NCBI GenBank assembly: GCA_035624615.1
Contig: DASPRE010000066.1
Coordinates: 16,555 to 80,554, forward strand
DNA: 64,000 bases
Direction: 5' to 3'
Source: Burkholderiales bacterium
Lineage (GTDB): Bacteria; Pseudomonadota; Gammaproteobacteria; Burkholderiales; JAHFRG01
Shown here: positions 3,932-61,059 of the stretch, piece by piece
How the letters are laid out: each line of letters opens with the position of its first letter
Position numbering within the stretch: position 1 is the first letter of the stretch
The notes under the pieces: model-generated
Told to the model about the DNA's origin: nothing
What the model saw: the letters and a program-made list of their open reading frames with translations, nothing else
Database searches by the model: none
Translations under genes and position numbers: made by a program

Positions 3932-4849
3932 ATGGAATTAAAAAAGAAAACCCCCAATCGAATCCGCAAAGCGGTATTTCCGGTCGCCGGTATGGGCACC
4001 CGTTTTTTGCCGGCGACCAAGGCCAGCCCCAAGGAAATGTTGCCCGTTGTCGATAGGCCCTTGATTCAATATGCGGTTGAGGAAGCGCTGCAGGCGGGAA
4101 TTATCGAATTGGTGTTTATTACCGGCCGAGGCAAACGCGCCATTGAGGACCATTTCGACGAAGATGATGCCATCGAAGCGAAGCTGCAAGCAAAGGGCAA
4201 ACAGGAGCTGCTCAAATCGGTGCAAAACATCATACCGAAATACGCCAGCTGTACTTATGTCCGTCAACCCAGGGCGCTCGGGTTAGGGCATGCCGTGCTG
4301 TGTGCAGCAAACGTCATTGGCGATGAGCCTTTCGCGGTGATCCTTGCAGATGACCTGATAGACAGCAATCCGTCCGCAATTGAGCAGATGACAAAAATTT
4401 ACCGCGCTCATAGGTGTTCAGTATTAGGCGTGCAAAAGGTCACGCAGCAGGACGCCTCGCAATACGGGATCGTTAAAAGCAGGTTACTCGCGGCTCCAAG
4501 ACTTCATGTAATCGCCGGTATCGTGGAAAAACCTAAGCCCGGCAAAGCGCCTTCGAACCTCGGCGTGGTGGGTCGCTACATTCTGACACCGCGGATATTT
4601 CACCACTTGCGTAGAGTGAAACCTGGCACGGGCGGAGAAATTCAACTCACCGATGGAATCGCCTCGTTGCTTAAGGAGGAAAAAGTATTTGCGTATGAAT
4701 TTGACGGCACACGCTACGACTGCGGTTCCAAGCTGGGCTACCTGAAGGCCACCTTGGCGTATGCGGTAAAACATCCTGAGGTGGGAGAAGAATTCAGCTC
4801 CTATCTTTCGTCACTGGGCTGTCGTTTGCCTAAATCGGGTCGGGTATAA
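3932..4849 (+). CDS. galU: UTP--glucose-1-phosphate uridylyltransferase
   Basis: It has the N-terminal motif [34 protein letters not shown], plus [13 protein letters not shown] and VEKP, all typical of GalU. Confidence 0.9.
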
Positions 4850-4879
4850 TTTGCAAGCCCAACTTCTGCTGTCGCTCGA

Positions 4880-5425
4880 GTGAAGCTTACCTACCAAAAA
4901 GCTCGGGATATTCTCAAATCCTCGGAACAGGTGTGCTCTGCGGCTGTTGTGTCTGAAGCGGTAAAGCGCGTGGCAACGGAGATTTCCGCGAAACTTTCCG
5001 AAAAACAGCCACTGGTATTGAGCGTGATGGGGGGATCGGTGGTGTTTACAGGGCATTTGCTTCCGCTACTCAATTTTCCGATGGATTTTGATTACATTCA
5101 CGTATCGCGGTACGACGACGATACCCGTGGTGGAGAAATTGACTGGAAGGTCGTGCCGCGGGAAAACGTAAAGGGAAGGACGATATTGGTGCTGGACGAC
5201 ATTCTCGATGAAGGACAGACACTTGCCGCGATTCGCGACAGAATCTTGGGCGCCGGTGCAACTTGCTTTTTCAGCGCAGTGCTTGCCAATAAAGACACCG
5301 GAAAACCCAAGCCGATACAGGCGGATTTTGTGGGAGTAACCGTGCCCAACCGCTATGTTTTCGGATACGGCATGGACGTTTACGGGGCGTGGCGCAATTT
5401 GCCGGCCATCTATGCGCTAAAATAA
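4880..5425 (+). CDS. hpt: Hypoxanthine/guanine phosphoribosyltransferase-family protein
   Basis: 181 aa with a GTG start. It has the PRPP-binding motif TILVLDDILDEGQTL and type I PRTase architecture. It lies next to an MTAP-family phosphorylase, forming a purine salvage pair. Confidence 0.75.
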   Translation: MKLTYQKARDILKSSEQVCSAAVVSEAVKRVATEISAKLSEKQPLVLSVMGGSVVFTGHLLPLLNFPMDFDYIHVSRYDDDTRGGEIDWKVVPRENVKGRTILVLDDILDEGQTLAAIRDRILGAGATCFFSAVLANKDTGKPKPIQADFVGVTVPNRYVFGYGMDVYGAWRNLPAIYALK

Positions 5426-5458
5426 ACGGTTTTCTAATTCTTCACGGGTTACCTCAGC

Positions 5459-6205
5459 ATGCTCGCAATTATCGGCGGGACCGGTCTCACCCGACTCGCC
5501 AACCTAGAAATGCCGCACCAAAGAGTAATTCGCACCCCTTATGGTGAACCGTCGGGCGCGCTGACTTTCGGCAAGATCAGAGGGCACGACGTGATCTTTC
5601 TGGCGCGTCACGGTTATGGCCATACCATACCGCCGCATCAGGTGAATTACCGGGCCAATATCTGGGCGCTGCATACGCAGCACGTCACTCACGTGGTATC
5701 GGTGGCTTCAGTTGGCGGTATTCGCCCAGATTTGACGCCGGGCACTATCGCCATTCCCGCGCAAATAATCGATTACACCCACGGGCGCCAATCGACTTTT
5801 TTTGACAGCACGGAAAAACCGGTCACGCACATAGATTTCACCTGGCCATATTGCGAACCGTTGCGTCAGCGACTGATAATTGCGGCAGAAAACGCCAAAC
5901 AAAAAACAGTGAATGGCGGTGTGTATGGCGCCACTCAGGGTCCGCGCCTAGAAAGCGCCGCGGAGATTAGCCGCCTTGAAAGGGACGGTGCTGATATGGT
6001 GGGCATGACCGGCATGCCCGAGGCGGCGCTCGCCAAGGAACTAGAGATGTGCTATGCGACTATTGCAGTGGTGGCGAATTACGCCGCAGGCAAGGGTGCA
6101 AGTAAACGGGAAATCCAGTTCGAAAACCTCGAGTCCACCATGCAAGAATCGTTGGATCGGGTGAAAACTATTCTTGAAAAATTAATTGAGCGCAATGGCG
6201 GTTAA
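5459..6205 (+). CDS. MTAP-family purine nucleoside phosphorylase (S-methyl-5'-thioadenosine/thioinosine phosphorylase)
   Basis: It shows [32 protein letters not shown] and [15 protein letters not shown], all typical of the MTAP/PNP family. Confidence 0.8.
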
Positions 6206-6728
6206 AACGGTATTGAAAATGGGCGATCCGCGCCTGCTTGAACTTTCGAAACCAGTCACGGCATTTGACAAGCCGGAGTTGCACCAGCTGATTCAGGACA
6301 TGCGCGATACCATGGACGCTCTGAACGGCGCGGGACTTGCGGCGCCGCAAATCGGCATCAGCCTCCAGGTAGTGATTTTTGGTGTGACTCGCAACCCGCG
6401 GTATCCAGACGCCGAAGAAGTGCCATATACGGTGCTAATTAATCCCAACATCGAGCCTTTGGACCAGGAAATGGAAGAGGAGTGGGAAGGTTGCCTGAGC
6501 ATTCCCGGAATGCGCGGCCTGGTGCCCCGTTACAGGCACTTGCGCTATCAGGGTTATGATCAGTATGGCAAGATCATAGAGCGCACTGTGAGCGGATTTC
6601 ATGCGCGTGTCGTGCAGCATGAATGCGATCACGTACAGGGAATACTCTATCCGATGCGAATCCGGGACATGCGCAATTTTGGCTACAGTGAAGTGCTGTT
6701 TCCTGGCCAGCTCGCCCAGGAGGAGTAG
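6195..6728 (+). CDS. def: Peptide deformylase
   Basis: It has the motifs [16 protein letters not shown] and QHECDH. The start was moved to ATG 6195 (the ORF track begins at TTG 6186). It overlaps the upstream gene by 11 nt. Confidence 0.9.
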
Positions 6729-22804: not shown

Positions 22805-24007
22805 ATGAATCCAGCGCAATCTCCGCGCCCCAGCATCGGCATGGTAGCTACGGAAGCATCGGGAGACCAACTCGGCGCTCACTTGATTTGCGCGTTGAAA
22901 GCACATCTTCCACAAGCGCAATTTGTTGGCATAGGCGGGCCCAAAATGTTGGCAGCGGGAATAGATTCGCTGTTTTCCATGGATAAACTCGCTAGGCATG
23001 GTTACGTGGAAATTTTGCGTCATTTGCCGCAAATCATTTGGATCCGACGAAAGCTTCGGAATTACTTTTTGCGGCACCGACCGCAGATCTTGATTGGGAT
23101 AGACTCGCCGGATTTCAACCTTGGCCTGGAGGAAAAACTAAAGAAACGCGGCGTACCCACGGTTCATTTCGTAAGCCCTTCAATCTGGGCTTGGCGCGCT
23201 GAACGAATTCATAAAATCAAGCGAGCGGTGTCGCATATGCTGACATTATTTCCTTTTGAGGCTCCGATTTATGAAAAAGCCGGAATACCGGTGACCTATG
23301 TCGGCCATCCGCTTGCCGAATTGCTTCCTGATGCGCCTGACCGCGAAGCTGCGCGCGAGCAAATGCGCCTGACGCCTAACGCGAAAATCTTTGCGCTATT
23401 GCCGGGAAGCAGACAAAATGAATTGCAATATATGGCAGATACGTTTATTGAAACTGCAAAGCGCATTTTGCAAGAGCAGGCCGACGCGCATTTTCTCGTA
23501 CCACTGCACAGCCGCGAAACACGCGACCAGTTTGAAGTCGCCTTATACCGAAACAATGCGCAGGATTTACCTCTGACTATATTATTTGGGCACACGCATA
23601 ACGCCCTGACAGTTGCTGACGCCGCACTAATTGCTTCCGGAACAGCTACTCTGGAAGCGCTGCTGCTCAAGTGTCCGATGGTTATCACTTACAAGGCCAA
23701 TGAGCTTAGTTTTCGCATGGTCAAGAGCAAGTATCACTTGCCGTATGTAGGCCTGCCTAACATCTTGGCTGGCGAATTCATCGTTCCGGAAATCCTGCAA
23801 CGCGACGCAACCCCAGAAAATCTGGCGCAAGCTCTACTGAACTTGGCCGCAGACCAGACCGTGGTCGAGCGCTTGCGTCGGAAATTCAGCGCGATTCATG
23901 CGAAGTTGAGACAAAACACCGCACAGCGTGCAGCGCAGGCCATATTGCCGTATCTTGAAAGCCAGGGAGTGACATGTGATCCAGCGGCCGATTTGCGGGG
24001 TGGATGA
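22805..24007 (+). CDS. lpxB: Lipid-A-disaccharide synthase
   Basis: 400 aa. It shows [30 protein letters not shown] and ASGTATLEA. Confidence 0.9.
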
Positions 24008-24554
24008 GGCGGGGAGGGGGCCGCTTGCCGGCCCGGTATACGCTGCTTGTGTCATGTTGAACCCGCGCCGCAAAATATACGGCCTAGCGGATTCCAAGCA
24101 GTTGAGCGCGGTGAGGCGCGAACAGCTCGCCTCAGAAATCAAGTCCTGCGCGCTGGCCTGGGCGATTGCCTCGGCGAGCGTCGAGGAAATCGACCGTATA
24201 AATATCCTGCAGGCCAGCCTGCTTGCAATGAAGCGCGCAGTAGAAAATCTTTCGATGGAACCGGTAGAAGTATTAATTGACGGTTTGCATTGTCCGCGGC
24301 TCGAATACCCCACACGCGCTATCGTCAAAGGGGATCAAAAAATTCCTGAGATAATGGCTGCCTCGATACTGGCCAAAACGGCGCGCGACGCGGAAATGCT
24401 TGCACTGCACTGGCAATTTCCGCAATATGGTTTTGACCGGCACAAGGGTTACCCGACCTTGCAGCATCTCGCCGCATTGCAAATCTACGGTGTGAGTGAA
24501 ATACACCGACGCAGCTTTGCGCCGGTGAGGGTCTTGGTCAAGGCATACGGATAA
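23976..24554 (+). CDS. rnhB: Ribonuclease HII
   Basis: It shows [21 protein letters not shown] and [12 protein letters not shown] start overlaps the lpxB end by 32 nt. Confidence 0.9.
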
Positions 24555-24557
24555 AAT

Positions 24558-25013
24558 ATGGCTTTCGCCAGGCTTCTGCATGTATTTGGAATCGTAGTAT
24601 GGGTAGGCGGAATGTTTTTCGCCTACTTGGCACTGCGCCCCGCAGCTATGCAGGAGCTTGAGCCGGCACCAAGGCTCAAGCTGTGGCAGGGCGTGTTGAA
24701 GAGGTTCTTTTTCTGGGTGTGGTTTGCTGTTGCGCTGTTACTCGGCAGCGGCTTATACATGATGCGGCATTTGGGCAGCATGAGCGTGCCAATTTACGCC
24801 TATTTGATGATGGTCACAGGACTACTCATGGTTTTAATTTTCATGCATGTGTTCTTCGCTCCGTTTCGACGCCTGCGGCTCTCAGTTGCTGCTCAAGACT
24901 GGAGCACTGCCGGTACTGCATTGAACCAAATTCGCATTTTAGTGGCTGCCAATTTGATTTTGGGCCTAATTAATATCGCGGTAGCCACCCTTGGCCCAAC
25001 CATTGCCGCTTGA
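24558..25013 (+). CDS. Small integral membrane protein, CopD/HemJ-like
   Basis: 151 aa with about 4 hydrophobic segments. The N-terminal motif LLHVFGIVVWVGGMFF resembles the H-x6-W-xGG motif of the CopD/HemJ-type families. The function is not established. Confidence 0.45.
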   Translation: MAFARLLHVFGIVVWVGGMFFAYLALRPAAMQELEPAPRLKLWQGVLKRFFFWVWFAVALLLGSGLYMMRHLGSMSVPIYAYLMMVTGLLMVLIFMHVFFAPFRRLRLSVAAQDWSTAGTALNQIRILVAANLILGLINIAVATLGPTIAA

Positions 25014-25956
25014 TTTCCGCAAGCAACACTTCAAGACTCTCGGACTCGCATTTTTCCTGAACTAGTGGCAAGCGCTTCTGGCATTGATTTTTGAGAGCCT
25101 TGCAAAAATCAGGATCGGTCTCCAGCCGCTGGAGCAACGCGGCAAGTTGGCGTTCGTCTTCGACCGCGTAATAACCTTTATAACTTTCACCCAGCATTCC
25201 AATGTTGCCCGGAATTCGCGAGGCGATCACCGGCACATCTGCTGCAAGCGCTTCGGAAATGACGTTAGCACCACCCTCCATGCGCGAACTTATGACCATC
25301 GCGCGGCTGCGGGCGAGCCTCTTGAGCACCTTCCAATGCGGGATTTCACCTATCCAGCGGTAACGCGGCTCGCGCGCCATCCACTTCCGAGCCTCGTTAT
25401 CCATTTCAGCGTTCATTGCGCCACCGATGTGGCAAATTCGAATGCGCGAGTTTGGAGGCAGATAGGCTAAAGCCATCGCGCAGCGAAAAGGGTCTTTTTC
25501 CTCCCGCAAATGGCCAATTACAGAGATTTCAAAATGGTTTTTAATCGGTGCCGCGGGTTTAGTGGGTTTCGCAGATTGATAAACGACCCGCGCTTTATCC
25601 CGCATATCCGCTGAAAGTTCGTTCAGGCCCATTTCTTGCAGCACGATTATCCGTGATGCTAATTTCAGCGACTCTTGTGCCGATGCGTCGGTTTTTATGT
25701 CGCGGTACAAATCAGTGCCGGTCAGGCAGACAATCAAAGGCGCCCGAGGCAGGAGGGTGGCAAAGCGTTTAATTGAGGCGTGGCTCTTGCGTGCGTGCAA
25801 AGCGATCATCATGTCGGCCGGGTCGCCATCCCATTCCGTTTGAATCTTGACGTTATGACCGGAATGTTTCAGGAAACGGCCCCATCTTTGCGCGGTATTA
25901 AGATTGCCGCCGAGAGCCGGGGCCGCAGCAGGTGTAATGATGGCAATGTTCATCAA
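24970..25956 (-). CDS. GT-B fold glycosyltransferase (GT1 family), possible SenB-like enzyme
   Basis: 328 aa. The C-terminal half has a GT1-type sugar-nucleotide-binding region (SSRMEGGANVISEALAADVPVIAS). It is divergent from an EgtB-type gene only 54 nt away. Confidence 0.6.
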   Translation of the reverse strand: MMNIAIITPAAAPALGGNLNTAQRWGRFLKHSGHNVKIQTEWDGDPADMMIALHARKSHASIKRFATLLPRAPLIVCLTGTDLYRDIKTDASAQESLKLASRIIVLQEMGLNELSADMRDKARVVYQSAKPTKPAAPIKNHFEISVIGHLREEKDPFRCAMALAYLPPNSRIRICHIGGAMNAEMDNEARKWMAREPRYRWIGEIPHWKVLKRLARSRAMVISSRMEGGANVISEALAADVPVIASRIPGNIGMLGESYKGYYAVEDERQLAALLQRLETDPDFCKALKNQCQKRLPLVQEKCESESLEVLLAEIKRQWLGQGWLPRY

Positions 25957-26010
25957 GTAATAAACTTGCGATAATGATTGCAGCTATTTTTCAGATCGTC
26001 CCAGATTATA

Positions 26011-27315
26011 ATGAACGCGCCATTATCTCTTCGTGAGGCGGAACTCGGCAAGCAGTTGCGAGACGCTAGGGAACGCACGCTGGCTCTAGTCGGCGATCTC
26101 GACGGGACCCAATGGCTTGGGCCGAAGCTCGCCATTGTCAATCCGCCATTGTGGGAACTGGGACATGTAGGCTGGTTCCAGGAACGCTGGTGCCTGCGTC
26201 ATAACGGCTCAGCGGTGTTATCACCGTCCATCATGCCCCATGCCGACAAACTTTATGATTCGGCCACGGTTGCGCATGACACCCGGTGGGACCTGCCGTT
26301 GCCCAAGCTCGACCAGACGCTGGTTTATTTGGAGGAAGTATTGCAACGCGTTCTCGACAAATCCACGCGCGGCGACCAGAAATTGAATTATTTCGCGCAG
26401 CTCGCGCTGTTTCATGAGGACATGCACGGCGAGGCAATTTTCTACACCCGGCAAACTCTGGGTTACCCCAAGCCCAGACATGCCCGCATTCCCCAAATCG
26501 CAAGTGCAGGGGACGTTGACGCTAAAGATTTAGCAATACCTGGGGGCACTATGATGCTGGGTGCTGCACCCAACGATGGATTTGTATTTGACAATGAAAA
26601 ATGGGCCCATGAAGTCCAGGTTAAACCATTCTGCATTTCCAGCACCACTGTGAGCAACGGAGATTTCGCCCGATTTGTAGATGACGGGGGTTACCAGCGC
26701 CGCAAATTATGGTCGGAGCAGGGCTGGCAGTGGAAAGAAATGGCCCATGCCGAGGCTCCTGCGTACTGGGTAAAAGCCGACGGCGAATGGTTGTTGCGGC
26801 GTTTCGACAACTGGGTACCATTGCCTCGCAACAATGCGATGATTCACGTCAACTGGTTCGAGGCCGACGCCTATTGCCGCTGGGCCAAACGGCGTCTACC
26901 TACTGAGGCAGAATGGGAAATGGCGGCGGCAACGGCGTCCAATGATACTTTACTAAAGAGACGCTATCCCTGGGGAAACGATCCTCCCTCTGAGGAACGT
27001 GCCAACCTGGATGGCTTTATGGCCGGCAGCGCTCCCGTTGCGGGATTTCCTGAAGGCGATAGCGCATGGGGTTTAAGGCAGATGATGGGTAATGTATGGG
27101 AGTGGTCCGCGGATTGGTTTCTTCCCTACCCGGGATTCGTAGTGGACCCCTACGCGGAGTACTCCTTGCCATGGTTTGGGAATCATAAAGCGCTGCGCGG
27201 AGGATGTTTCGCCACGCGAGCGAGGCTGTTGCGAAATACCTGGCGCAACTTTTACACGCCAGACCGACGCGACGTGTTTGGCGGTTTTCGCACGTGCGCT
27301 ATCGAGCCCTCGTGA
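26011..27315 (+). CDS. EgtB/SenA-type non-heme-iron enzyme (DinB-like domain plus FGE-sulfatase/SUMF1 domain)
   Basis: The N-terminal DinB-like region carries His ligands (WELGHVGWF, FHEDMHGE). The C-terminal FGE-type domain shows HVNWFEADAYCRW, GNVWEWSADWF and RGGCFAT. The start was trimmed to ATG 26011. Confidence 0.75.
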   Translation: MNAPLSLREAELGKQLRDARERTLALVGDLDGTQWLGPKLAIVNPPLWELGHVGWFQERWCLRHNGSAVLSPSIMPHADKLYDSATVAHDTRWDLPLPKLDQTLVYLEEVLQRVLDKSTRGDQKLNYFAQLALFHEDMHGEAIFYTRQTLGYPKPRHARIPQIASAGDVDAKDLAIPGGTMMLGAAPNDGFVFDNEKWAHEVQVKPFCISSTTVSNGDFARFVDDGGYQRRKLWSEQGWQWKEMAHAEAPAYWVKADGEWLLRRFDNWVPLPRNNAMIHVNWFEADAYCRWAKRRLPTEAEWEMAAATASNDTLLKRRYPWGNDPPSEERANLDGFMAGSAPVAGFPEGDSAWGLRQMMGNVWEWSADWFLPYPGFVVDPYAEYSLPWFGNHKALRGGCFATRARLLRNTWRNFYTPDRRDVFGGFRTCAIEPS

Positions 27316-27322
27316 AGCACGC

Positions 27323-28108
27323 GTGAAGCACATTTCGTCGCGCGATAACGCGCAGTTCCGGTTGCTTTTGAAGCTCGCGCATTCATCAAGAGCAAGAAGA
27401 AAAACCGGCAAAGCCGTGCTTGACGGTCCTCATCTCGTTTCCGCTTACTGTTCAGCGTTCGGCGCGCCGGAAACCGTGGCGGTAAGCGCCAGCGGGATGA
27501 ATCACAATGAAATTCGCAGCTTGCTGCGGCGAATCCCCAAGCCCAATCTGTTCGAGCTACCCGACTCCCTTTTCAATGAAATTTCTCCAGTTATAACACC
27601 GACCGGGATTCTCGCCATCATCGACGTTCCAGTGTCACGAATGCGGCCGGAGAAATCCCGATTCGGAGTGCTGCTGGACGACATTCAAGATGCGGGAAAC
27701 TTGGGCTCGATACTGCGCTCAGCTGCGGCAGCAGGCGTAGATTGCGCTTTCCTTTCAAAAGGCTGTGCTTTTGCTTGGTCACCCAAAACACTGCGCGCCG
27801 CCATGGGGGCGCACTTCCGGCTGCCGATTATCGACGACGCCGATCTTCCGGCCGTGGCAAAGAATTTCAGAGGCAAAATCATTGCGACAGACTCGAACGC
27901 AAAAAAAACACTGTATCAAACCGATTGCCGCGGGCCGGTTGCCTTTGTCATTGGCAATGAAGGAGTGGGGGTGTCACCGATTTTGTTGAAATCTGCCCAT
28001 GAGCGCATCATGATACCGATGCCAGGAAAAGTGGAATCGTTGAACGCTGCTGCAGCCGCAGCAGTCTGCTTGTTTGAAAAAATCAGGCAGGAACAAAACT
28101 TTGACTGA
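27323..28108 (+). CDS. TrmH/SpoU-family RNA 2'-O-methyltransferase
   Basis: It has the SpoU motifs DAGNLGSILRSAAAAG, VIGNEGVGVS and IPMPGKVESLNAAAAAAVCLFE. A GTG start at 27323 is inferred. The longer ORF overlaps the upstream gene in another frame. Confidence 0.8.
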   Translation: MKHISSRDNAQFRLLLKLAHSSRARRKTGKAVLDGPHLVSAYCSAFGAPETVAVSASGMNHNEIRSLLRRIPKPNLFELPDSLFNEISPVITPTGILAIIDVPVSRMRPEKSRFGVLLDDIQDAGNLGSILRSAAAAGVDCAFLSKGCAFAWSPKTLRAAMGAHFRLPIIDDADLPAVAKNFRGKIIATDSNAKKTLYQTDCRGPVAFVIGNEGVGVSPILLKSAHERIMIPMPGKVESLNAAAAAAVCLFEKIRQEQNFD

Positions 28109-28114
28109 ATGAAG

Positions 28115-28939
28115 CTAATAGATGTGCCGTTCCAAGTTCGCTTTGTGCAAAATAGTGGTGGCGATTTCCTCGATCGATTTGGTCGTAGTATCGATGTAAT
28201 TAATGCCTTCCTGATGCATCAGCGCTTCCGCCTCCTTGACTTCAAACTGGCAGTTGGCAAGCGTGGCATAGCGGCTGCCCGGCTTGCGTTCGTTACGAAT
28301 GTGTTGAAGACGTTCCGGATTGATGGTCAGCCCGTAAAGCTTGTTGCGGAATGGCTTAAGCTGAGCGGGCACGGTCATTGAACTGAAATCCTCAGGCAAT
28401 AGGGGGTAATTGGCGGCACGCACGCCGAACAGCAGAGCCAGGTACAGGCAGGTGGGTGTCTTGCCACAGCGCGACACGCCAATCAAAATCACATCTGCTT
28501 GATTCAAGTCACGGGTAGAAACACCGTCATCGTGACCTAGTGCGTAGTTAACGGCTTCGATGCGGGCCTGGTAACCGTAGCTGTTACTGAAGCTGTGCGA
28601 ACGGCCGATAATATGCGAGGATTTAACTCCCAGTTCCTTTTCCAAAGGGTTGGTAAACACTTGGAAAAAATCCATAAAAAGGCCATTTGCACCTGCGACC
28701 ATCGCGCTGATTTCAGGATTTACCAGAGTGCTGAATACCAGCGGACAACTTCCTTCCGTGAGGCTCACTTGGTTGATCTGGTTTGCAACTTCGGCGGCTT
28801 TTTCTACTGTATCCACGAACGGTATCGTGATTTGTTTGAACTCGACCCCGTCAAACTGGGTAAGCAGGCTGTGCCCTAGCATCTCCACGGTGATGCCGGT
28901 GCGGTCGGAAATAAAAAAAGCCGTGCGTTTGTTGCGCAT
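28115..28939 (-). CDS. ppsR: PEP synthase regulatory protein (bifunctional kinase/pyrophosphorylase, DUF299)
   Basis: 274 aa. It shows FFISDRTGITVEMLGHSLLTQF and the P-loop GVSRCGKTPTCLYLA. Confidence 0.85.
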   Translation of the reverse strand: MRNKRTAFFISDRTGITVEMLGHSLLTQFDGVEFKQITIPFVDTVEKAAEVANQINQVSLTEGSCPLVFSTLVNPEISAMVAGANGLFMDFFQVFTNPLEKELGVKSSHIIGRSHSFSNSYGYQARIEAVNYALGHDDGVSTRDLNQADVILIGVSRCGKTPTCLYLALLFGVRAANYPLLPEDFSSMTVPAQLKPFRNKLYGLTINPERLQHIRNERKPGSRYATLANCQFEVKEAEALMHQEGINYIDTTTKSIEEIATTILHKANLERHIY

Positions 28940-47521: not shown

Positions 47522-47596
47522 GCGGGAATAGCTCAGTGGTAGAGCACAACCTTGCCAAGGTTGGGGTCGCGAGTTCGAGCCTCGTTTCCCGCTCCA
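47522..47596 (+). tRNA. tRNA-Gly (anticodon GCC)
   Basis: The cloverleaf was folded by hand. The acceptor is GCGGGAA/TTCCCGC, the anticodon loop is CTTGCCAAG, the T-loop is GTTCGAGC, and CCA is encoded. Confidence 0.9.
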
Positions 47597-47602
47597 ATTC
47601 CA

Positions 47603-47639
47603 GGGAAAACGAACAAAACTATCGAAATTTCGTTTTCCC
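47603..47639 (+). other. Perfect 11-bp inverted repeat hairpin in the tRNA-Gly/tRNA-Cys spacer
   Basis: GGGAAAACGAA (47603-47613) and TTCGTTTTCCC (47629-47639) are exact reverse complements with a 15-nt loop. They are followed by CTTTTCAATTTT. Confidence 0.6.
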
Positions 47640-47666
47640 TTTTCAATTTTGATGATAAATAAATAC

Positions 47667-47740
47667 GGCGGGGTGGCAGAGTGGTCATGCAGCGGCCTGC
47701 AAAGCCGTGGACGCCGGTTCGATTCCGACCCCCGCCTCCA
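47667..47740 (+). tRNA. tRNA-Cys (anticodon GCA)
   Basis: The acceptor is GGCGGGG/CCCCGCC, the anticodon loop is CCTGCAAAG, the T-loop is GGTTCGATTCC, and CCA is encoded. Confidence 0.9.
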
Positions 47741-47885
47741 GTACAATTGAAATTATCACGACCTGGATGGAGCAAGTGACAAGTCACCGCAAAAACTCCG
47801 AGCAGCGATAAAAAGCGGACGTATTCGCTTGCGTCATTCATCCCAATGGAATTCGCTTCCAGAGCTCTCGTAGAATCACATTTTT

Positions 47886-47976
47886 GCCCGGATGGTGGAA
47901 TTGGTAGACACAAGGGACTTAAAATCCCTCGGGCTCTAACCAGCCCGTGCCGGTTCGACTCCGGCTCCGGGCACCA
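47886..47976 (+). tRNA. tRNA-Leu (anticodon UAA), class II with long variable arm
   Basis: The acceptor is GCCCGGA/TCCGGGC. The anticodon stem-loop is AGGGA-CTTAAAA-TCCCT. The variable arm is GGGCT...AGCCC, the T-loop is GGTTCGACTCC, and CCA is encoded. Confidence 0.85.
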
Positions 47977-48095
47977 AACCAGCCTTCAGTAACTTCTTAT
48001 TTATCAGGCTCTGACATTCGGCCGACGATGGTAACTTTGCACCCGGTGTCCGATTGGAAGCAGTCTGGCCGTTAAAACTATACTCGACGGGTTTT

Positions 48096-50543
48096 TTATG
48101 ACTTTGCCAGCCGTGACCTATAAACAAGCGCCGCAGGCAGCAGTAATACAGCGGTAAGCAGGCACATGATCTCTCCGAGTACCGCAACGATTCCAAAAGA
48201 GAAAAGAGCTTGATTCCTTGCGGCAAGCAAGGATCCGTAGCCGAGTATGGTAGTGAAGGAGCAGAGTGCTACTGCGCCACCGGTCTTGCTTACGATCGCA
48301 GCGACATCTGAGGGATTCTCGCGAAATCGCTGCAGCACATTGATGGCGTATTCGACACCAATGCCAAAAGTAATCGGAAACGCCATGAAGTTGAGAAAGT
48401 TGATGCGGATATCAAGCGCGATGACGGCTCCAGCGAGCAGTGTCACACCGGCCAGAAGTGCTGCCAGCACATTCAGTGCTTGACGGCGCACTCGAAAGAG
48501 CACTAACACGACAACAACTACGCCGGCAAACGAGGCCAAGGTGGTAGGTAACGCCTCACGATTGAGAGCTTCCAAAATCTCGGCAGACACGAAGAAGCCG
48601 CCCGCTATCTGCGCCGGTGGCTTCACGCTGTCCGCGATATTCCGCAACGCGGTTGCCGCGTGTATCGTCAGAGCCCCATCCCACGTGGATCCGTTTAGGC
48701 TCTGCAAAAGGATGGAGGTTCGCCCAAACCGCCCGTCCTTTTCCCGCAAACCCAGCGCCAATAGCTCGGGCAGGTCTGCAGCCGAGATCGCTGGCGCATC
48801 AGCGCTCGCCACCATGGACGCCAGTGGTGCCTTGGCATCGCCGGGAAGCGCCGCGCGCACTGCCGGAGTAAGAAGTTTCGCGATGGCCTGAAGTTCTTGG
48901 CGACGTTGTTCCTGATCTGGCGGCAGCATGTCGTCGGGGGTGATCACCAGCGATGTGATCGACAACAATGGCTCATGGCGCGCGTCCTGGCGCAGACGCG
49001 CCGCGATGAGCTGCGCATCTGCTTTAGTGTCGGACATAACAGCAACTGCTGTGAAATTGCGGCCCAACACCGCGTCCATTTTACGCGACCAGTAGGCTTC
49101 ACCATGTATCGCGGAGTCACGGCTACGCAACTTGCTCATGTCGTATTCGATGCGAGAGCTGTTAAATTGAGACGCAGCCAGCAACGATGCCAGCAGTGCA
49201 ACTCCGCCGGCCAAGAGAATCGCACGCGACCGGTATACGACCAGATGTTCAAGCCAATTGCCCAGGGCGGTTGCTAACCCGCGAGTTCGTTCGGGAACTT
49301 GGGAACGGCGATCAATCATGACAAGCATAATGGGCAGCAACAGATAAGTCGCGCACCAACAGGCCAACATACCCAATGAGCCGATAACAGCAAACTCGTT
49401 GAATCCGCGAAATGTCGTGGTCAGGAGCGATGCATAACCCACCGAGGCCGCCACCGTGGCCGCAAGTGTCGCTGACCACGTGCATCGCACGGCCATAATG
49501 ACCGCTTCTGTCGGCGTCGCGCCGCGGCGGCGTTCATCCGTATAGCGAGCGGTCAAAATGATGCCGGAATTAATGCCGTTGCCAGCAACGATGGATCCGA
49601 GGAATGCGGTGCTGCTGCAGAGTGACTTGACAAATAGGGAAGCAATACCAAAACCCCAGGACGTGCCGATTGCGAGCGGAAACGCAATGCACAGAAGCGC
49701 GCCCCACCACCTAAAGAACAGAACGACCGCGCCTGCTATCCCGAAGATTACCAGTACCGCTGAAACACCGATGTCCGATTTCAATGCAGAAAGTTCTTCT
49801 ACGGCGATGGCAACGTCTCCCGCATAGCCAACTTGTAGTCCTTGGGATTCCCGAGCTAGTGAGGCGACCTCCTTCTTGATGTGTTCAAACATCGGCCCGA
49901 TCGTTTCCACACCTGTATCTGCAGTGGCGAGAAACACCAGGACAATGGCCGTGCGACCATCGTTGGAAACGAGACGATCCGCGGGAAAACGACCGGCAAA
50001 AGGGTCCTGTTTCTTCACGCGGTCATGCAGAACCGAAAGGGCTGATTCAGTATTCACAGCGGTTTCAAGCGAAGGGAAAAGCAGTGACGCGCCACTTCGC
50101 TGGAACTCAACTAGATTTGCCATTTGCTCATTCAATTGGCGAAGATCTTTGAGCGGAATATAAAGTGGACCGTATTTACGTACGAATCGCCGCTCGGCGC
50201 TCACATCGGTACGAACGCTGAGAATGAGGTCGGGTCGTGTCGTCGCGTATGCGCGGATGCGGTCGCCCAACTCGGTCGCAAACGCTAGCGGCGGGCCACT
50301 GCTGGTGCCACTTATCACGATTCCCAGATGCTGAGAGCCTTCCATACGCTTGCGCAGCGTCTGGGCACCGCGAACCGCGGGCGAATCGGCCGGCAAGAGT
50401 GCTTCGAGATCAGACCTTAGGTTCGCGTACAGGCGCACGGCGGCGAGTCCAGCTGGAACTGCAGTTGCGAGGGCCAATCCGAGTACGGTGACGCGCAAGC
50501 GGCGGCTCGTCACGAGTTTTTGAATCCACACTGACGCTTTCAT
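48096..50543 (-). CDS. MMPL/RND-superfamily membrane exporter (HpnN-like lipid transporter)
   Basis: 815 aa from ATG 50543. It has two blocks of about 6 TM helices, each preceded by a large soluble loop, which is the MMPL/RND topology. Its ATG overlaps the upstream stop (ATGA). Confidence 0.75.
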   Translation of the reverse strand: MKASVWIQKLVTSRRLRVTVLGLALATAVPAGLAAVRLYANLRSDLEALLPADSPAVRGAQTLRKRMEGSQHLGIVISGTSSGPPLAFATELGDRIRAYATTRPDLILSVRTDVSAERRFVRKYGPLYIPLKDLRQLNEQMANLVEFQRSGASLLFPSLETAVNTESALSVLHDRVKKQDPFAGRFPADRLVSNDGRTAIVLVFLATADTGVETIGPMFEHIKKEVASLARESQGLQVGYAGDVAIAVEELSALKSDIGVSAVLVIFGIAGAVVLFFRWWGALLCIAFPLAIGTSWGFGIASLFVKSLCSSTAFLGSIVAGNGINSGIILTARYTDERRRGATPTEAVIMAVRCTWSATLAATVAASVGYASLLTTTFRGFNEFAVIGSLGMLACWCATYLLLPIMLVMIDRRSQVPERTRGLATALGNWLEHLVVYRSRAILLAGGVALLASLLAASQFNSSRIEYDMSKLRSRDSAIHGEAYWSRKMDAVLGRNFTAVAVMSDTKADAQLIAARLRQDARHEPLLSITSLVITPDDMLPPDQEQRRQELQAIAKLLTPAVRAALPGDAKAPLASMVASADAPAISAADLPELLALGLREKDGRFGRTSILLQSLNGSTWDGALTIHAATALRNIADSVKPPAQIAGGFFVSAEILEALNREALPTTLASFAGVVVVVLVLFRVRRQALNVLAALLAGVTLLAGAVIALDIRINFLNFMAFPITFGIGVEYAINVLQRFRENPSDVAAIVSKTGGAVALCSFTTILGYGSLLAARNQALFSFGIVAVLGEIMCLLTAVLLLPAALVYRSRLAKS

Positions 50544-51889
50544 GAGATGTAATCCATGAGGCGCATGGCGGCAGCCACCGCTCGAACCGCGAGCCCGTGT
50601 AGGGGCTTGCACGGCAGCTTGGGCAGATCGTCTCGGAACCACGCGAGTCCGCCTTCACCCGTGACCGCATCGCTGCGAGCCAGCCGGTCGCTAATCCAGC
50701 TGCCAGCGGCTACGCCCAATGCGAGACCGTGCCCGCACCATCCGATGGCGTGAAGAATATTTGGAGCTTCCGAACACCTGCCGATGGCCGGCAATCCGTC
50801 GAGGACATAGCCGATGGTGCCGCTCCAGCCATGCGAGACCCGGATGCCTTCGCGAGCCAAGTCTGGAAAAGTTGCGAAGAGAAGGTGCCGCAGGCCTTTT
50901 AACGTGCGCGCCGGAATTCGTTCCGCGCGCGCGTTTTCGACCGGGCAGAACCGTGGCGGACCTCCACCGAAAATGAGGCGATTATCGCTCGATAGCCGAA
51001 AGTAACTGAATATTCGACGCGCCTCCACTACGCCCTCCCGGCCGGCCCATCCAATGTTGGCCAGCAAGGTGGTGGGTATCGGCTCAGTAGCGAGCGCCTG
51101 CAATTGCAGCGCTATGATGCGACGACAAGGCCGCCCCAAATTGGGCGCGTAACCGGCGGTGGCAAGCACAGCCTGATCGGCAATCACCTTTCCGCCACCC
51201 ACTAGCGACAAGCATGCCTTGCCGTCGTCGGCACCACCGGTCAAAGCGCGCACCGGGCTGCATTCAAAAATGCGCGCACCACGAACTGTCGCTGCCCTGG
51301 CGAGTCCAGCCACCAGCTTTCCGGGATGCACGATCCCAGCAAGGGGCAGCCGAAGCGCCGCGGGCCCGTCAATTCCATTGCCCGGTCTAGGAGGCAACCG
51401 TATGTATTTCGCCAAGCGGTTGTCAAATAGCGACTCGACCAACAATCCGCGGGCGTTAAGCCAATCTGCCTGAGCGGATAGGCGGCGACGCCCGGCGGCG
51501 GAACGCGCCCAAAGAATCTGACCGGTAAGAGACAGGTCGCAATCGATATGTTCCGTTGCGATAAGATCGCCAACCATTTTGACGGCGCGCAGTGTGGCTC
51601 GATAGAGCGCCTCCGCACCGACATCGCCTAGCCGCTTGATCAATGCGAGCAGATCTTGGCCTACCCCGGGCCCCAACATACCGGTGTTGCGACCCGAGGC
51701 ACCAGAACCTACAGTCCCGGCCTCCAGCACTACCACGTGAAGAGTCGGATAACGTAACAGCAAGTGATAAGCGGTCGACAACCCGGTGACGCCGCCACCT
51801 ACAATCGCGACGTCGGCACGAATGGTTTCCTGCGGGAAACTCTCATACCGCACGCGCGAAATCTCGTTCCAAACAGGAGACTCAATCAT
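50540..51889 (-). CDS. FAD-dependent oxidoreductase, DAO (glycine/D-amino-acid/amine oxidase) family
   Basis: 449 aa. It has the N-terminal dinucleotide fold ADVAIVGGGVTGLSTAYHL...LEAGTVGSGASGRNTG and the C-terminal GHGLALG typical of the DAO family. Confidence 0.75.
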   Translation of the reverse strand: MIESPVWNEISRVRYESFPQETIRADVAIVGGGVTGLSTAYHLLLRYPTLHVVVLEAGTVGSGASGRNTGMLGPGVGQDLLALIKRLGDVGAEALYRATLRAVKMVGDLIATEHIDCDLSLTGQILWARSAAGRRRLSAQADWLNARGLLVESLFDNRLAKYIRLPPRPGNGIDGPAALRLPLAGIVHPGKLVAGLARAATVRGARIFECSPVRALTGGADDGKACLSLVGGGKVIADQAVLATAGYAPNLGRPCRRIIALQLQALATEPIPTTLLANIGWAGREGVVEARRIFSYFRLSSDNRLIFGGGPPRFCPVENARAERIPARTLKGLRHLLFATFPDLAREGIRVSHGWSGTIGYVLDGLPAIGRCSEAPNILHAIGWCGHGLALGVAAGSWISDRLARSDAVTGEGGLAWFRDDLPKLPCKPLHGLAVRAVAAAMRLMDYIS

Positions 51890-51977
51890 GGCGATTCCCG
51901 GGTAAAATGTGGATTCCGAAAATTCGCTGCCACCAGATACTCATCTTGTGTCTGCGATAGTCAACCGGCTTCCAAAT

Positions 51978-52913
51978 TCATCGCACCTTTATCCGTAGCG
52001 ACCGCGGAAGAAGTCTTAACTGGGCCGGCAGGCGGCCAACACTTTCGCCGTCAAGCTCCAGCAGCACCCGGGAAGGACTTGTGGCAGCCACTTGGCACGC
52101 TCGAAATAGTTGGGTGCCTGCTTCGTGAACATGAGCACCGTTGTATAAGGATCGTCGCTTGCTGATAAAATCCAGCACGCCGAAACCTGACCACAGTGTC
52201 ACATCGAATTTCCCATCATCGATCGAGGCATGCGGGGCGACATTTATGCCACCACCGAAATACTGGCCATTGCAAATCGCGCAGTTGGTAACTGAATATT
52301 CGTGTGCTGGTTCGTCGTTCAAAGCTACTGTGACGATTTGATCGTGGTAGACGAGCAAGCTCCGCACTGTCGCCAGAGTAAAAGCTAATGAGCCGCTGGC
52401 GCGCTTGAGCGTCGGAGTGACCACGCGGGCGACTTGTCCGCTGCAGCCAAATGAAGCAACGTTGAGAAAGACTCTCTCCACGGTCTTTCCGTTGTGATCG
52501 ATGTAACTGGCGTGTCCCACATCAATGGATCTGTTCTCGCGACCACCTAGTCGTGCACACGCCTCGTGGAGGCTGGATGCGCCGAGGGTCCTGGCAAAGT
52601 CGGAACCCGTGCCCTGTGCGACAATTCCCAGAACCGCAGCCGGTGCTACTGCGCGACCATCCTGAAAGAAGCCGCACACGACCTCGTTTAAGGTTCCGTC
52701 CCCGCCAACCGCCACAATCATCTCAAAGCCGTCTTGAAGTGCCCGGTTGGCTAAACTCGTCGCGTGTAATGGTCCTGCGGTAAAGGCGTGCTCGAAAGGG
52801 CCAATCGCGTCGCCAATCAATGAACCTATTTGTCCCCAACGTCGGCCGGTGGCGCCGCCGGCAGAGGCCGGATTGACGATGACCATCGCGCGCAGTCTGT
52901 CCCCGTTGGACAT
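51978..52913 (-). CDS. Diacylglycerol-kinase-family lipid kinase (YegS/BmrU/sphingosine-kinase-like; same family as VlmJ)
   Basis: 311 aa. It has the DAGK catalytic domain (AMVIVNPASAGG..., IVAVGGDGTLNEV, LGIVAQGTGSDFAR). Confidence 0.8.
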   Translation of the reverse strand: MSNGDRLRAMVIVNPASAGGATGRRWGQIGSLIGDAIGPFEHAFTAGPLHATSLANRALQDGFEMIVAVGGDGTLNEVVCGFFQDGRAVAPAAVLGIVAQGTGSDFARTLGASSLHEACARLGGRENRSIDVGHASYIDHNGKTVERVFLNVASFGCSGQVARVVTPTLKRASGSLAFTLATVRSLLVYHDQIVTVALNDEPAHEYSVTNCAICNGQYFGGGINVAPHASIDDGKFDVTLWSGFGVLDFISKRRSLYNGAHVHEAGTQLFRACQVAATSPSRVLLELDGESVGRLPAQLRLLPRSLRIKVR

Positions 52914-52919
52914 CGCAAC

Positions 52920-54011
52920 TTATAAGGACCGAGTCAGGAATAGAAGATCAAAGACGGCGCGCACCGATAAAGGATTAGCGGCCAGGTATTCGCGCTCAAT
53001 AATGTCCGGTGTCCACTTGAGCTTATAGTGTGCTTGGCTCGCCGCCGGATAGATGGCAGCCCCATACCGGTACAGGAGGGGCACTGCCCAGGCGGCCAAG
53101 CGGTTCGCACCCGGAAACTCAGGGCCTCCTACGACAAATGGCGTGAAGCCAAAATGCAGATACGGCGCACCCTCAGAGATCATGACCTCGATCGCCCGTG
53201 CATTACAAAGTTCCAGGGCACCGGGCGGAGCGGAGGGTAGCCGCCGACTTAGGTCATGCAGGTAACCCGGTGCGCGCCCCCAGGAGGGAACGTAGGTGAT
53301 GAAGGCCACGCACCGGTCAGTCGGATCAATGGCTGCAAAAATCCGCCGACGCGCGTCTTCTGGCGGACCGATCTCGCCAATCATGAAATCAAGTTCCTTC
53401 TTGTTCTTGGCCTTGAGCCACTCCGCACTTACTTCATGCAGCTCGCCGAACGTCATTTCGTTGCGAGGCCAATCCACGCCAAACTCAACGGCCCTCAGGC
53501 CAGATGCCCGGGCACGACTGATTTTGTTGCGCAACTGCATTTTCCTTGTGCCGCGGAGCGTGAAGTTTCTCAGTGAAAGGCCAAAACTAGTGCCGACCTG
53601 GTTGATCGAGAATCCGCGATCGCTAAACAGCTGCACCTGCTCAGCACGCAACTGAACAACCAGCACGCGCCGCCGGCGGCTGGACGCAAAGGCGAGTAAA
53701 TGGTCAAGCAAAACGCCCCGCTGTGATTGGGGCGCCTGGACTCCACCCAGGGCAATCACATGTCGCCCCTGTTCCCTAAAGGAAATGAATCCGCTGATTC
53801 CCGGTACTGTGAAATGTTGATTCCTCGAAGAAAGCGTAAGAAAGCCGGATGGATGATCAATCAGATCCTCCATGGATTCCTCGCGTCGGGGCAAAATCAT
53901 ATTACTGGTCGCGAGCGCCACATCCTGCTCCTTGGTGGTGATGAATGGCCGAGCATGCGTTCTGAAAGGCTGTGGATAGGTGGCCGGACGGGACTTTTGG
54001 GTCGTCAGCAT
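52920..54011 (-). CDS. Standalone MprF C-terminal-type domain protein (DUF2156/LPG_synthase_C; aminoacyl-tRNA-dependent transferase fold; same family as VlmA)
   Basis: It aligns by eye with the S. aureus MprF C-domain, recalled from memory. The aligned segments are NFTLRGTRKMQLRNKISRARASG, VSAEWLKAKNKKELDFMIG, HDLSRRLPSAPPGALE and HYKLKWTPD..REYLA. There are no TM/flippase segments. ATG 53873, preceded by GAGGAA, is an alternative start. Confidence 0.8.
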   Translation of the reverse strand: MLTTQKSRPATYPQPFRTHARPFITTKEQDVALATSNMILPRREESMEDLIDHPSGFLTLSSRNQHFTVPGISGFISFREQGRHVIALGGVQAPQSQRGVLLDHLLAFASSRRRRVLVVQLRAEQVQLFSDRGFSINQVGTSFGLSLRNFTLRGTRKMQLRNKISRARASGLRAVEFGVDWPRNEMTFGELHEVSAEWLKAKNKKELDFMIGEIGPPEDARRRIFAAIDPTDRCVAFITYVPSWGRAPGYLHDLSRRLPSAPPGALELCNARAIEVMISEGAPYLHFGFTPFVVGGPEFPGANRLAAWAVPLLYRYGAAIYPAASQAHYKLKWTPDIIEREYLAANPLSVRAVFDLLFLTRSL

Positions 54012-54065
54012 CGGGCACAGGCGTGCTAACCCAGCAGCGATAATCCCTCGGTCGGATAATTAGCA

Positions 54066-55130
54066 TCAGCGCCCAACTGCACCAACATTAAGTGCCTGCG
54101 CCAATGCCGGCGTTCGACGCACGCGCCAGATTCTGGCGTCAACTAGGTAGTGGTGAAACGCGACCCCCCAACACAGGCCAAGCACAACGTTACGGGCCGT
54201 TTCATTAGTCAGGGCGACCGCGGCAGGGACTCGTAGCCCATACCAAACGAGGCCAAGCAGTAATCCGCCCGCAAGGTAAGGGACGAGGCCACCCAAGGGG
54301 CGGCGGCCGCGACCCGCTTCGTACTGCCAAACGATGCGATGGTATTGGAGGTTGTGGAAAATGGTGAGCGTGGCGAGGATAGTGAGCAAATGAGAGAGCA
54401 GAGCGAATACCAGCACGTGAAACACGATCACAATGGTCAGCAGCAAGTGTTTTGGCCCAGGACGGAACTGCCCGTATCGGCCAGTAACTGCAAGCAACAC
54501 GGCCGCTCCCATTAACAAGCAGAACGCCACATCCAAAATGAATGCTAATTGGGGCAGAAGAGCAACGGGGACGAGTTGCGGCAGCCCACTGTGAAGGTAT
54601 GCTTCGCTAAGAGAAAAGCGCAAAAACGGATAAAGGCAGCCGACCCAAAGAATAAAGGAATCGAGCAATTGGCCGCGCCGATTATTTTCGCCGGCTCGCC
54701 TGCGATAAAGCACGAGAAAACCGTAATGCTGCCTCACTAGATGCCAGTAGGCCCATAGGTAGGCAGCGAGGAGAAAATAGCTGAATAGTGCCCCCCGCAG
54801 CTGTAGCGCTGCATCGGCGACTGCGAGAGCCGGGCCAAGCGCGAAGATCAGCCACCACCGGGGCTTGGGAATTCCGGCTCTGGAATTCGTGTCGGGAGCG
54901 AGATAGCTGCGCGCATAAGTGGCCCAAACGTGCGTGCCATCGAACAGCACCCCCCATAAAAAGACGACAAGAATGACCGGATCGCTCGGGGAAAGCTGCG
55001 CACTATCGGGAAAGGGAGCGGCAGCAAAAAAGGCCAGCAGAATAATCCCGGCAATGACCGAGCCCTGAAACCAGAGCAAGTCATCGCGCCGCGAAATTAT
55101 CCATGGCGAGGAAGGGTCATTGCTAACCAT
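54066..55130 (-). CDS. Polytopic membrane protein of unknown function with four conserved-looking His/Trp motifs
   Basis: 354 aa from ATG 55130, with an 8-nt overlap onto the upstream gene. It has about 8-9 hydrophobic segments. The motifs are FDGTHVWATY, WHLVRQHYGF, FHNLQYHRIVW and FHHYLVDARIWR. Confidence 0.6.
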   Translation of the reverse strand: MVSNDPSSPWIISRRDDLLWFQGSVIAGIILLAFFAAAPFPDSAQLSPSDPVILVVFLWGVLFDGTHVWATYARSYLAPDTNSRAGIPKPRWWLIFALGPALAVADAALQLRGALFSYFLLAAYLWAYWHLVRQHYGFLVLYRRRAGENNRRGQLLDSFILWVGCLYPFLRFSLSEAYLHSGLPQLVPVALLPQLAFILDVAFCLLMGAAVLLAVTGRYGQFRPGPKHLLLTIVIVFHVLVFALLSHLLTILATLTIFHNLQYHRIVWQYEAGRGRRPLGGLVPYLAGGLLLGLVWYGLRVPAAVALTNETARNVVLGLCWGVAFHHYLVDARIWRVRRTPALAQALNVGAVGR

Positions 55131-56340: not shown

Positions 56341-56350
56341 TGGTCGTCTC

Positions 56351-56764
56351 CTATCGCTCTGGTCGCTTATTGGGTTCGAAGGGCAGCGGCCAGGGTTTCG
56401 AAAAATTGCCCAGCAAACCGCGATCGCCAGACAGGTGAATCGGCACTGCGACCATTGCCCATTCCGGGCCTCCGGAGGCCAGCATCCAGAGTGCGACGAT
56501 GGCGCCCTCGACAACGTAGCTATGGGTTAGGTTGTAGAGCAGATGATAGATGCGCGGGATCCGTTGGCCCCCGGAACTGCGAAACGCCACTGCCCCTGGC
56601 AAATAGCCGACTAAATCGATAAGTAAAAATGCGGCGATAAACCGGCTCCAGGAGATATCCTCAAAATGCGCGACCGCCAGGGACGTGAAAATTGCGACTA
56701 TGGCAACGTGTTCGGCGCGCATCCACCATGAAGCGCCTCGATCCGGGACAAATGCTGTGCTCAT
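56351..56764 (-). CDS. DUF4260-like small membrane protein
   Basis: 137 aa with 3-4 hydrophobic segments. It shows IDLVGYLPG, YNLTHSY and IHLSGDRGLLGN, which resemble the DUF4260 pattern. Confidence 0.45.
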   Translation of the reverse strand: MSTAFVPDRGASWWMRAEHVAIVAIFTSLAVAHFEDISWSRFIAAFLLIDLVGYLPGAVAFRSSGGQRIPRIYHLLYNLTHSYVVEGAIVALWMLASGGPEWAMVAVPIHLSGDRGLLGNFSKPWPLPFEPNKRPER

Positions 56765-56773
56765 TGCTGCTCC

Positions 56774-59254: not shown

Positions 59255-59709
59255 GATAGCTCGCCTCGTTGACCTCGTTTCGGTCGATCGTGGTCGACTT
59301 CTACAGAAGAGTTCCGGTCCAAAAATGTGCAGACGTGCAGATGTGCTTTTTTCGGATACGGCCGCTGGCCGGCAGAGCAAAAGGGCGCGCGCGAAAGTTA
59401 TAGAGTTCAGAACGGAACTGAGCCGTTACCATCAGCCGCAAGCAAATGAATGCGGTTTGTAAAGAATATAAAAACATGCTCCTCCTGATATTGTGGCTTT
59501 TCTGCCGCCAGCGGTTGCGCTGGGTTTGGCCATTACTCTGTCGCATGGCGCATTACGGATGGGTAACGATTCGGTAACAGATTGCTTACTTGTTTACCAC
59601 CGCTGCTTGTAAGCGATTTGTAACCGATACGTTAGCGATTGGTAAGTCACGGTTTGGTACCGTGTTTATCGGCAATAAGACAGCCATTTGCACTAAATGC
59701 AAATTCAAT

Positions 59710-61047: not shown

Positions 61048-61059
61048 TGAGGCATCACC

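Follow-up and report, generated by a model that had tools for sequence, protein, structure and literature searches.

Biosynthesis of selenoneine, a selenium-containing antioxidant, has been described for Variovorax paradoxus and its senABC cluster (Kayrouz et al. 2022, 10.1101/2022.04.13.486033; structures 8k5i and 8ryz for SenA, 8jjq and 8fbx for SenB), whose genes run in one direction with senC, a selD, adjacent to the other two. A related cluster, ovs, directs the formation of ovoselenol and combines OvsA and OvsM with a senBC-like selenosugar cassette (PMC11030361; structures 8u41, 8u42, and 8ux5). The third system of comparison is type I EgtB of the ergothioneine pathway, egtABCDE, represented by the Mycobacterium thermoresistibile enzyme (4x8b). 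Here, we compare with these systems a divergent senB-senA gene pair located in a 64,000-nucleotide stretch of contig DASPRE010000066.1 (assembly GCA_035624615.1), a Burkholderiales metagenome-assembled genome (MAG); this whole stretch is referred to below as the window. The pair lies between rnhB/copD and an RNA methyltransferase gene and probably constitutes a functional two-gene selenoneine module of an uncultured Burkholderiales bacterium. The evidence for this consists of the family membership of both proteins, the conservation of their catalytic and substrate-pocket residues, purifying selection, and a position that is conserved across a clade.

The two genes and the region between them are as follows; the coordinates, the protein lengths, and the 54-bp divergent gap agree with those given in an earlier sequence-only reading of this DNA, which described a 328-amino-acid (aa) GT-B glycosyltransferase and a 434-aa DinB+FGE enzyme.

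24970-25956, minus strand: senB, selenosugar synthase (Se-glycosyltransferase), starting at TTG 25956 (328 aa) or at ATG 25953 (327 aa).

25957-26010, no strand: divergent intergenic region between senB and senA, 54 bp, read directly; presumed shared promoter region.

26011-27315, plus strand: senA, selenoneine synthase (non-heme iron selenoxide synthase), 434 aa from ATG 26011.

The senB ATG lies one codon inside the TTG and is the one that public gene calls adopt (327 aa), in which case the gap between the genes measures 57 bp. The senA reading frame is open over 25978-27315 of the plus strand, and public gene calls start it at ATG 26011, which coincides with the alignment start of several relatives. 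Pfam detects Glycos_transf_1 in the senB product and DinB_2 (PF12867) plus FGE-sulfatase (PF03781) in the senA product.

Both proteins are orthologues of the Variovorax enzymes according to curated hidden Markov models (HMMs). The senA product scored 512.1 bits on the NCBIfam model for SenA (NF041186), i.e., 92 bits above the equivalog cutoff of 420, a score resembling those of a selD-adjacent SenA (locus L056, 519 bits) and an egtD-adjacent SenA (locus L036, 521 bits) from related genomes. The same protein reached 330.4 bits on the EgtB model TIGR03440, below the cutoff of 360, and 155 bits on that of OvoA. The senB product scored 425 bits on TIGR04348 (SenB; cutoff, 300), the next family, a GT4, following at 113 bits, and it matches the solved structures 8jjq, 8k5u, and 8fbx of SenB at 212 bits. 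The resemblance to senB-senA pointed out in the sequence-only reading, which had proposed this NCBIfam comparison for both proteins, is therefore more than a superficial likeness, with equivalog cutoffs passed and, as detailed below, diagnostic residues present in both proteins.

These scores bear directly on the alternative that a canonical, sulfur-using EgtB (ergothioneine) stands by chance beside an unrelated lipopolysaccharide/exopolysaccharide (LPS/EPS) glycosyltransferase. The sen locus does adjoin the lipid A genes lpxD-fabZ-lpxA-lpxB, and 330 bits is still a substantial score on the EgtB model. However, that score falls short of the family cutoff whereas SenA exceeds its own by 92 bits, the glycosyltransferase gave 425 bits on SenB versus at most 113 on any other GT family, the Arg87/Asp416 thiol pair of EgtB is replaced by His and Tyr, and the adjacency of senB and senA persists in phyla with no lpx genes nearby. 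A chance pairing of this kind, extremely improbable in our view, is refuted by the HMM scores and residue tests; neither the ordinary LPS/EPS GT1 nor the canonical EgtB that the sequence-only reading had named as evidence to the contrary was what the HMM scores indicated.

At the residue level, the window SenA shares with type I EgtB the DinB and FGE domains, the three-His iron site, the equivalent of Tyr377, and the Asn414 hercynine site. The alignment places the iron triad H52/H135/H139 and the catalytic Y381 on EgtB H51/H134/H138 and Y377, the segments ELGHVGW and FHEDMHGE matching the EgtB iron-binding histidines as had been supposed from the GH...HEDMH context. Unlike in EgtB 4x8b, to which the protein is 36.8% identical, H89 stands in place of Arg87 and Y415 in place of Asp416 (the thiol-binding pair), and Gln137 and Trp415 are replaced by Met and Phe, respectively. 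The replacement of Arg87/Asp416 by His and Phe/Tyr is reported for all SenA proteins (10.1101/2022.04.13.486033). The window protein thus has the iron triad, the catalytic Tyr, the His plus Tyr/Phe substitution of the thiol pair, and the N-F hercynine contacts of Variovorax SenA, while egtA, egtC, egtD, and egtE, the partners of egtB in egtABCDE, are all absent from the vicinity of the window senA.

Distinguishing SenA from OvsA requires additional evidence, since OvsA (sequence from 8u41) itself scores 423.8 bits on NF041186, just over the cutoff of 420, and the SenA model alone therefore cannot separate the two. OvsA and the window enzyme have the same fold, and both belong to the selenosugar-dependent non-heme iron selenoxide synthases. 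Were the window protein an OvsA-type 5-selenohistidine synthase acting toward ovoselenol, its use of histidine would explain the missing egtD, and its best matches among solved structures are indeed to OvsA (319 and 309 bits, the former the highest raw structure score), ahead of Variovorax SenA (269 bits) and EgtB (244 bits). But the top match, 8ux5, is the engineered variant OvsA-YNF, and the lower score versus Variovorax SenA is due to the absence from that enzyme of about 50 residues (310 to 358 in the longer window SenA), which splits the alignment; in aligned identity, Variovorax SenA (43.6% of 362 residues) is marginally nearer to the window protein than OvsA is (40.6% of 416). The three deciding residues are M401/Q430/A431 in OvsA versus Y366/N395/F396 in SenA, and exchanging all three in OvsA (variant OvsA-YNF) redirects the enzyme to hercynine and C2 selenylation (PMC11030361). 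In the printed alignments the window protein carries Y384/N413/F414, the hercynine (C2) type of motif, not the M/Q/A of OvsA (histidine, C5).

The composite motif formed by the diagnostic positions of the selenoneine and ovoselenol papers (10.1101/2022.04.13.486033; PMC11030361), HHRHMHYYNFY, is identical in all 27 SenA sequences of the lpxB type, i.e., those with the layout of the window (see below), and in many selD- or egtD-linked ones, and differs both from EgtB (R87, Q137, W415, and D416) and from OvsA (M, Q, and A). In addition, the window SenA scores about 90 bits more than OvsA on NF041186 and gives 93.5 bits on the C-terminal signature TIGR04373, which was not reported for OvsA at an E value of ≤1e-20. 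An OvsM-type methyltransferase is also missing from the window locus, the neighboring methyltransferase being a SpoU RNA enzyme of the local backbone, and the known ovs clusters belong almost exclusively to aquatic gammaproteobacteria (PMC11030361), in contrast to the Burkholderiales MAG from which the window derives. We consider the OvsA assignment highly improbable; judged by its scores and switch residues, the window DinB+FGE protein is predicted to be a hercynine-using SenA.

The SenB active site conforms to the same picture. In the Variovorax enzyme, structures and mutagenesis assign roles to a set of residues: K158 is needed for Se-P cleavage, N20, T23, and E231 bind the sugar donor, E239 binds the ribose, and N20, H58, R61, T83, T85, and R155 form the selenophosphate pocket (PMC10891094; PMC11237966). 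The window protein has the equivalents of the catalytic Lys (K154), of the donor triad (N18/T21/E227), of E239 (E235), and of the pocket positions H58/T83/T85/R155 (H54/T79/T81/R151), the full set of conserved active-site residues being N18, T21, H54, T79, T81, D82, Q127, R151, K154, E227, and E235. In the 25 lpxB-type sequences amenable to extraction and in 10 selD-linked ones, the positions of the catalytic Lys, the donor triad, E239, and H58/T83/T85/R155 show no variation, and all 72 related SenB sequences agree in their catalytic and pocket residues. Nothing in the SenB active site sets the selD-less loci apart from those linked to selD.

Several observations nevertheless weigh against a functional selenoneine module. 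The window SenB differs from that of Variovorax at three contact positions, K57 (R61), E153 (V157), and N231 (H235); because E153 and N231 touch the sugar site, the preferred UDP (uridine diphosphate)-sugar may differ from that of Variovorax. N231 falls in the donor-binding motif EGGAHV, reported as conserved for betaproteobacterial SenB-like enzymes, which reads EGGANV in the window protein. Asn occupies that position in 72/72 related SenB sequences, including those from ten selD-adjacent loci, and EGGAHV therefore appears to be specific to a Variovorax-like subgroup. The estimates of selection, with ratios of nonsynonymous to synonymous substitution rates (dN/dS) of 0.10 to 0.14 for senA and senB versus loci L002, L082, and L083 and similar values for lpxB, rnhB, and rlmB (the methyltransferase gene), are rough, since dS is approximately 1.2 to 1.4 and near saturation in most comparisons. 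The close relatives are uncultured MAGs except for one Pelomicrobium isolate genome, and the long-form SenA clade is known by sequence. Finally, neither selD nor egtD was found in the ~81 kb made up of the window and its left and right flanks.

For this search, SelD and EgtD seeds were taken from related loci and verified on NCBIfam (TIGR00476, 323 bits; TIGR03438, 377 and 373 bits). tblastn with these seeds against the six frames of the 64-kb window gave no match, in line with the earlier statement that the window contains no selD/senC or egtD homologue. Public contigs 98 to 99.9% identical to the window ends, reached via LigA and a fatty-acid hydroxylase (ZipA gave only a 3.3-kb contig), extended the search by 8,071 nt to the left and by 9,039 nt to the right, which with the window amounts to roughly the whole GenBank contig (81,032 nt). 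The window locus hence lacks the three-gene sen cluster as defined by a selD homologue within ~5 kb of senB together with an egtB homologue, and differs from Variovorax senABC in having no adjacent senC (selD) and in the divergent orientation of senB and senA.

The comparison set for the locus comprised 80 species-representative genomes encoding the closest SenA relatives. These were searched by tblastn with defined queries, clustering of open reading frames (ORFs) having been dropped because fusion ORFs merged SenA, SenB, and EgtD and because high-GC loci contained spurious long ORFs. In the surveyed DNA, selD was present in 10 and egtD in 13 of the 80 loci; among those flanked by 5 kb or more of sequence on each side, the counts were 2/35 and 6/35, respectively. 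The layout of the window, lpxA-lpxB-(rnhB)-(copD)-senB(-)-senA(+)-methyltransferase-PSRP(-), is common to 25 of the 80 related genomes, none of which has selD or egtD within 10 kb. In the founding count, egtB and selD lay no more than 5 kb away from 827 of 2,353 TIGR04348 (senB) genes, and hercynine is normally drawn from a separate egt pathway (10.1101/2022.04.13.486033); ovs pathway genes, likewise, are reportedly sometimes separated on the chromosome (PMC11030361). The lack of a neighboring selD or egtD at the window locus is real but ordinary, being the usual state among the closest relatives, and the missing partners are not an anomaly.

The same counts (0/25 lpxB-type genomes with selD or egtD within 10 kb and none in ~81 kb here) could also be taken to mean that SenB/SenA-type chemistry operates with noncanonical partners in a genome or clade devoid of selD and/or egtD, for example with scavenged hercynine or with another chalcogen donor leading to a thio-analogue. 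Some related loci that join SenA, EgtD, and an uptake-type ATP-binding cassette (ABC) transporter without SenB fit this idea in that they indicate that parts of the pathway are shuffled in nature. We regard it as unlikely, however, given that the selenophosphate-pocket residues of SenB and the selenosugar-/hercynine-type residues of SenA do not differ from those of selD-/egtD-linked relatives, that thioglucose is a very poor SenA substrate and unlinked selD the common state in published counts (10.1101/2022.04.13.486033), and that no alternative donor enzyme is conserved beside senBA. Between the possibilities left by the sequence-only reading, a split sen locus is favored, nothing pointing to different partners or a different product. 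It is very unlikely, in particular, that the Burkholderiales clade with senBA between rnhB and the methyltransferase gene lacks selD and/or egtD altogether and depends on scavenged hercynine or a non-SelD donor; if true, this would imply a selD-independent route to a seleno- or thio-imidazole, and the locus would become interesting.

The survey also returned other combinations of the pathway genes. SenA next to EgtD, without a SenB in the surveyed DNA, was found in L036, L040, L043, L047, L048, L054, and L063, mostly from Methylomirabilis/Methylomirabilota, with L036 from Poribacteria and L063 from Anaerolineae. Directly downstream of SenA-EgtD, the first five of these loci carry an ABC ATPase gene and a fused binding-protein/permease gene, L054 has a different ABC set, and in L063 none was detected; the transporters were classed by eye from representative sequences of L036 and L039. 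In L017 (positions 4679-6655), a single 658-aa ORF directly downstream of senA encodes a SenB N-terminal part and an EgtD C-terminal part. In L081 (12576-14834) and L069 (11169-12650), the SelD encoded beside senA (accompanied by egtD in L081) carries a fused pyridine-nucleotide-disulfide oxidoreductase domain at its N terminus; the L081 fusion scores 488 bits on TIGR03169 ("Nterm_to_SelD"), and the L069 protein ends at the contig edge.

The genes surrounding the window pair are the following.

22805-24007: lpxB, upstream of rnhB/senBA.

23976-24554, plus strand: rnhB (RNase HII), PF01351 in the public gene call; upstream backbone.

24558-25013, plus strand: CopD-family membrane protein gene, 151 aa, PF05425; local backbone, context gene.

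27323-28108, plus strand: SpoU/RlmB-like RNA 2'-O-methyltransferase gene, PF00588 plus an MRM3-like substrate-binding domain; downstream backbone.

The CopD-like ORF scores 40.4 bits on PF05425 (cutoff, 32.1). It is convergent with senB, and the 3' ends of the two genes overlap by 44 nt (24970-25013); in L002, the aligned copD and senB regions overlap by only ~5 nt. For the methyltransferase gene, the most likely start is GTG 27323, 7 nt past the senA stop. In its longest ORF, the substrate-binding domain begins near residue 60; related proteins have lengths of 258 to 280 aa. Its product scores 108 bits on TIGR00186 (RlmB), below the cutoff. From the distance of 7 nt to the senA stop, the gene is probably cotranscribed with senA. 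A scan of positions 24400 to 28300 for promoter and terminator consensus sequences gave no more sites than shuffled sequence and thus supports no particular promoter or mode of regulation. The sole Rfam matches in the whole window were three tRNAs, without a riboswitch or any other RNA in the vicinity of senB-senA.

The setting of the pair was assessed on metagenome contigs anchored on RnhB, 57 of which had loci with enough downstream sequence. The methyltransferase gene directly follows rnhB without senBA in 18 of the 57 and is therefore not a sen gene. A CopD-like gene follows rnhB without senBA in three (L086, L096, and L128), and among the 25 related senBA loci it was detected in only four (L002, L004, L005, and L009), which identifies it as part of the backbone and not of the insert. 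senB lies downstream of rnhB in five of the 57 loci, including the two closest relatives, L082 and L083. In L086 (8099-12263 of a 539-kb metagenome contig), the copD-methyltransferase junction holds motA, motB, a weakly matching methyltransferase gene, and an HDOD-domain gene, with no senBA; what occupies the site behind rnhB/copD therefore varies. Thus, senBA is an insertion at a variable junction in a widespread rnhB-methyltransferase arrangement. The earlier view that the pair interrupts this arrangement held in that respect, but the CopD-like gene, which had been counted with the interruption, belongs to the backbone.

In the neighbor-joining SenA tree, the lpxB-type sequences form one clade, with 53 to 75% SenA identity. 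The GC content and the GC content at third codon positions (GC3) of senB and senA are within the range of the neighboring genes, hence there is no compositional sign of recent transfer, and a repeat search around senB-senA returned only short chance matches, with no insertion-sequence ends and no att-like repeats. Rather than the accessory insertion suggested by the sequence-only reading, the insertion is old, fixed in one clade, and under purifying selection. These data also address the possibility that senB-senA is a decaying, nonfunctional relic whose partners have been lost. The lack of selD or egtD nearby would agree with this, but both frames are intact, all catalytic residues are conserved, dN/dS is ~0.1 as in the housekeeping neighbors, and the arrangement is kept in 25 species-level genomes across that same range of SenA identity, making a relic exceedingly unlikely.

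Elsewhere in the window, a tRNA-Gly/Cys/Leu cluster occupies positions 47522 to 47976, and directly after it the GC content rises from 0.525 to 0.566 (block 47522-64000). This block encodes an MMPL transporter, two FAD oxidoreductases, a DAGK/YegS-like kinase, an LPG_synthase_C protein, an 868-aa aminotransferase-III plus dehydrogenase fusion, an amino-acid permease, an AurF-like di-iron protein, and a fatty-acid hydroxylase. It resembles a lipid or aminolipid modification island and is conserved in contigs at least 98% identical.

With the favored reading, a functional divergent senB-senA module, the mechanism can be outlined by homology from the steps established for the characterized Variovorax enzymes. 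The actual substrates and product are inferred by analogy, and selD and egtD are presumed to lie at other sites of the genome. Selenophosphate would be supplied by an unlinked SelD. SenB would join it to a UDP-sugar (UDP-N-acetylglucosamine or UDP-glucose), forming a C-Se glycosidic bond with inversion, and Lys154 (Lys158 in Variovorax) would then promote Se-P hydrolysis to release a 1-seleno-beta-sugar. Hercynine would come from an EgtD likewise encoded elsewhere, and SenA, through Fe(II) held by H52/H135/H139 and with O2, would couple the selenosugar to C2 of hercynine. The resulting selenoxide would eliminate the sugar to give selenoneine.

An exact-sequence lookup found identical proteins in GenBank, in a Burkholderiales MAG annotated by a third party. 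HXZ96821.1, "selenoneine synthase SenA," is identical to the window SenA; HXZ96820.1, "selenoneine biosynthesis selenosugar synthase SenB," is identical to the window SenB; and HXZ96819.1 is named "CopD family protein." The locus is a bona fide senB-senA pair in its common two-gene form, already annotated and already known. The literature on TIGR04348, on surveys of sen gene distribution, and on Pelomicrobium and selenium yielded nothing beyond the founding and structural papers. By this analysis, an uncultured Burkholderiales lineage from soil or peat carries genes for selenoneine biosynthesis, which in itself adds little that is new. For the enzyme family, it implies that automated annotation can label OvsA-type enzymes as SenA, so that the Y/N/F versus M/Q/A residues should be checked before a product is predicted. 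And, because two-gene senBA loci without an adjacent selD or egtD are common in the 80 genomes, mining rules that demand a three-gene cassette undercount the potential selenoneine producers.

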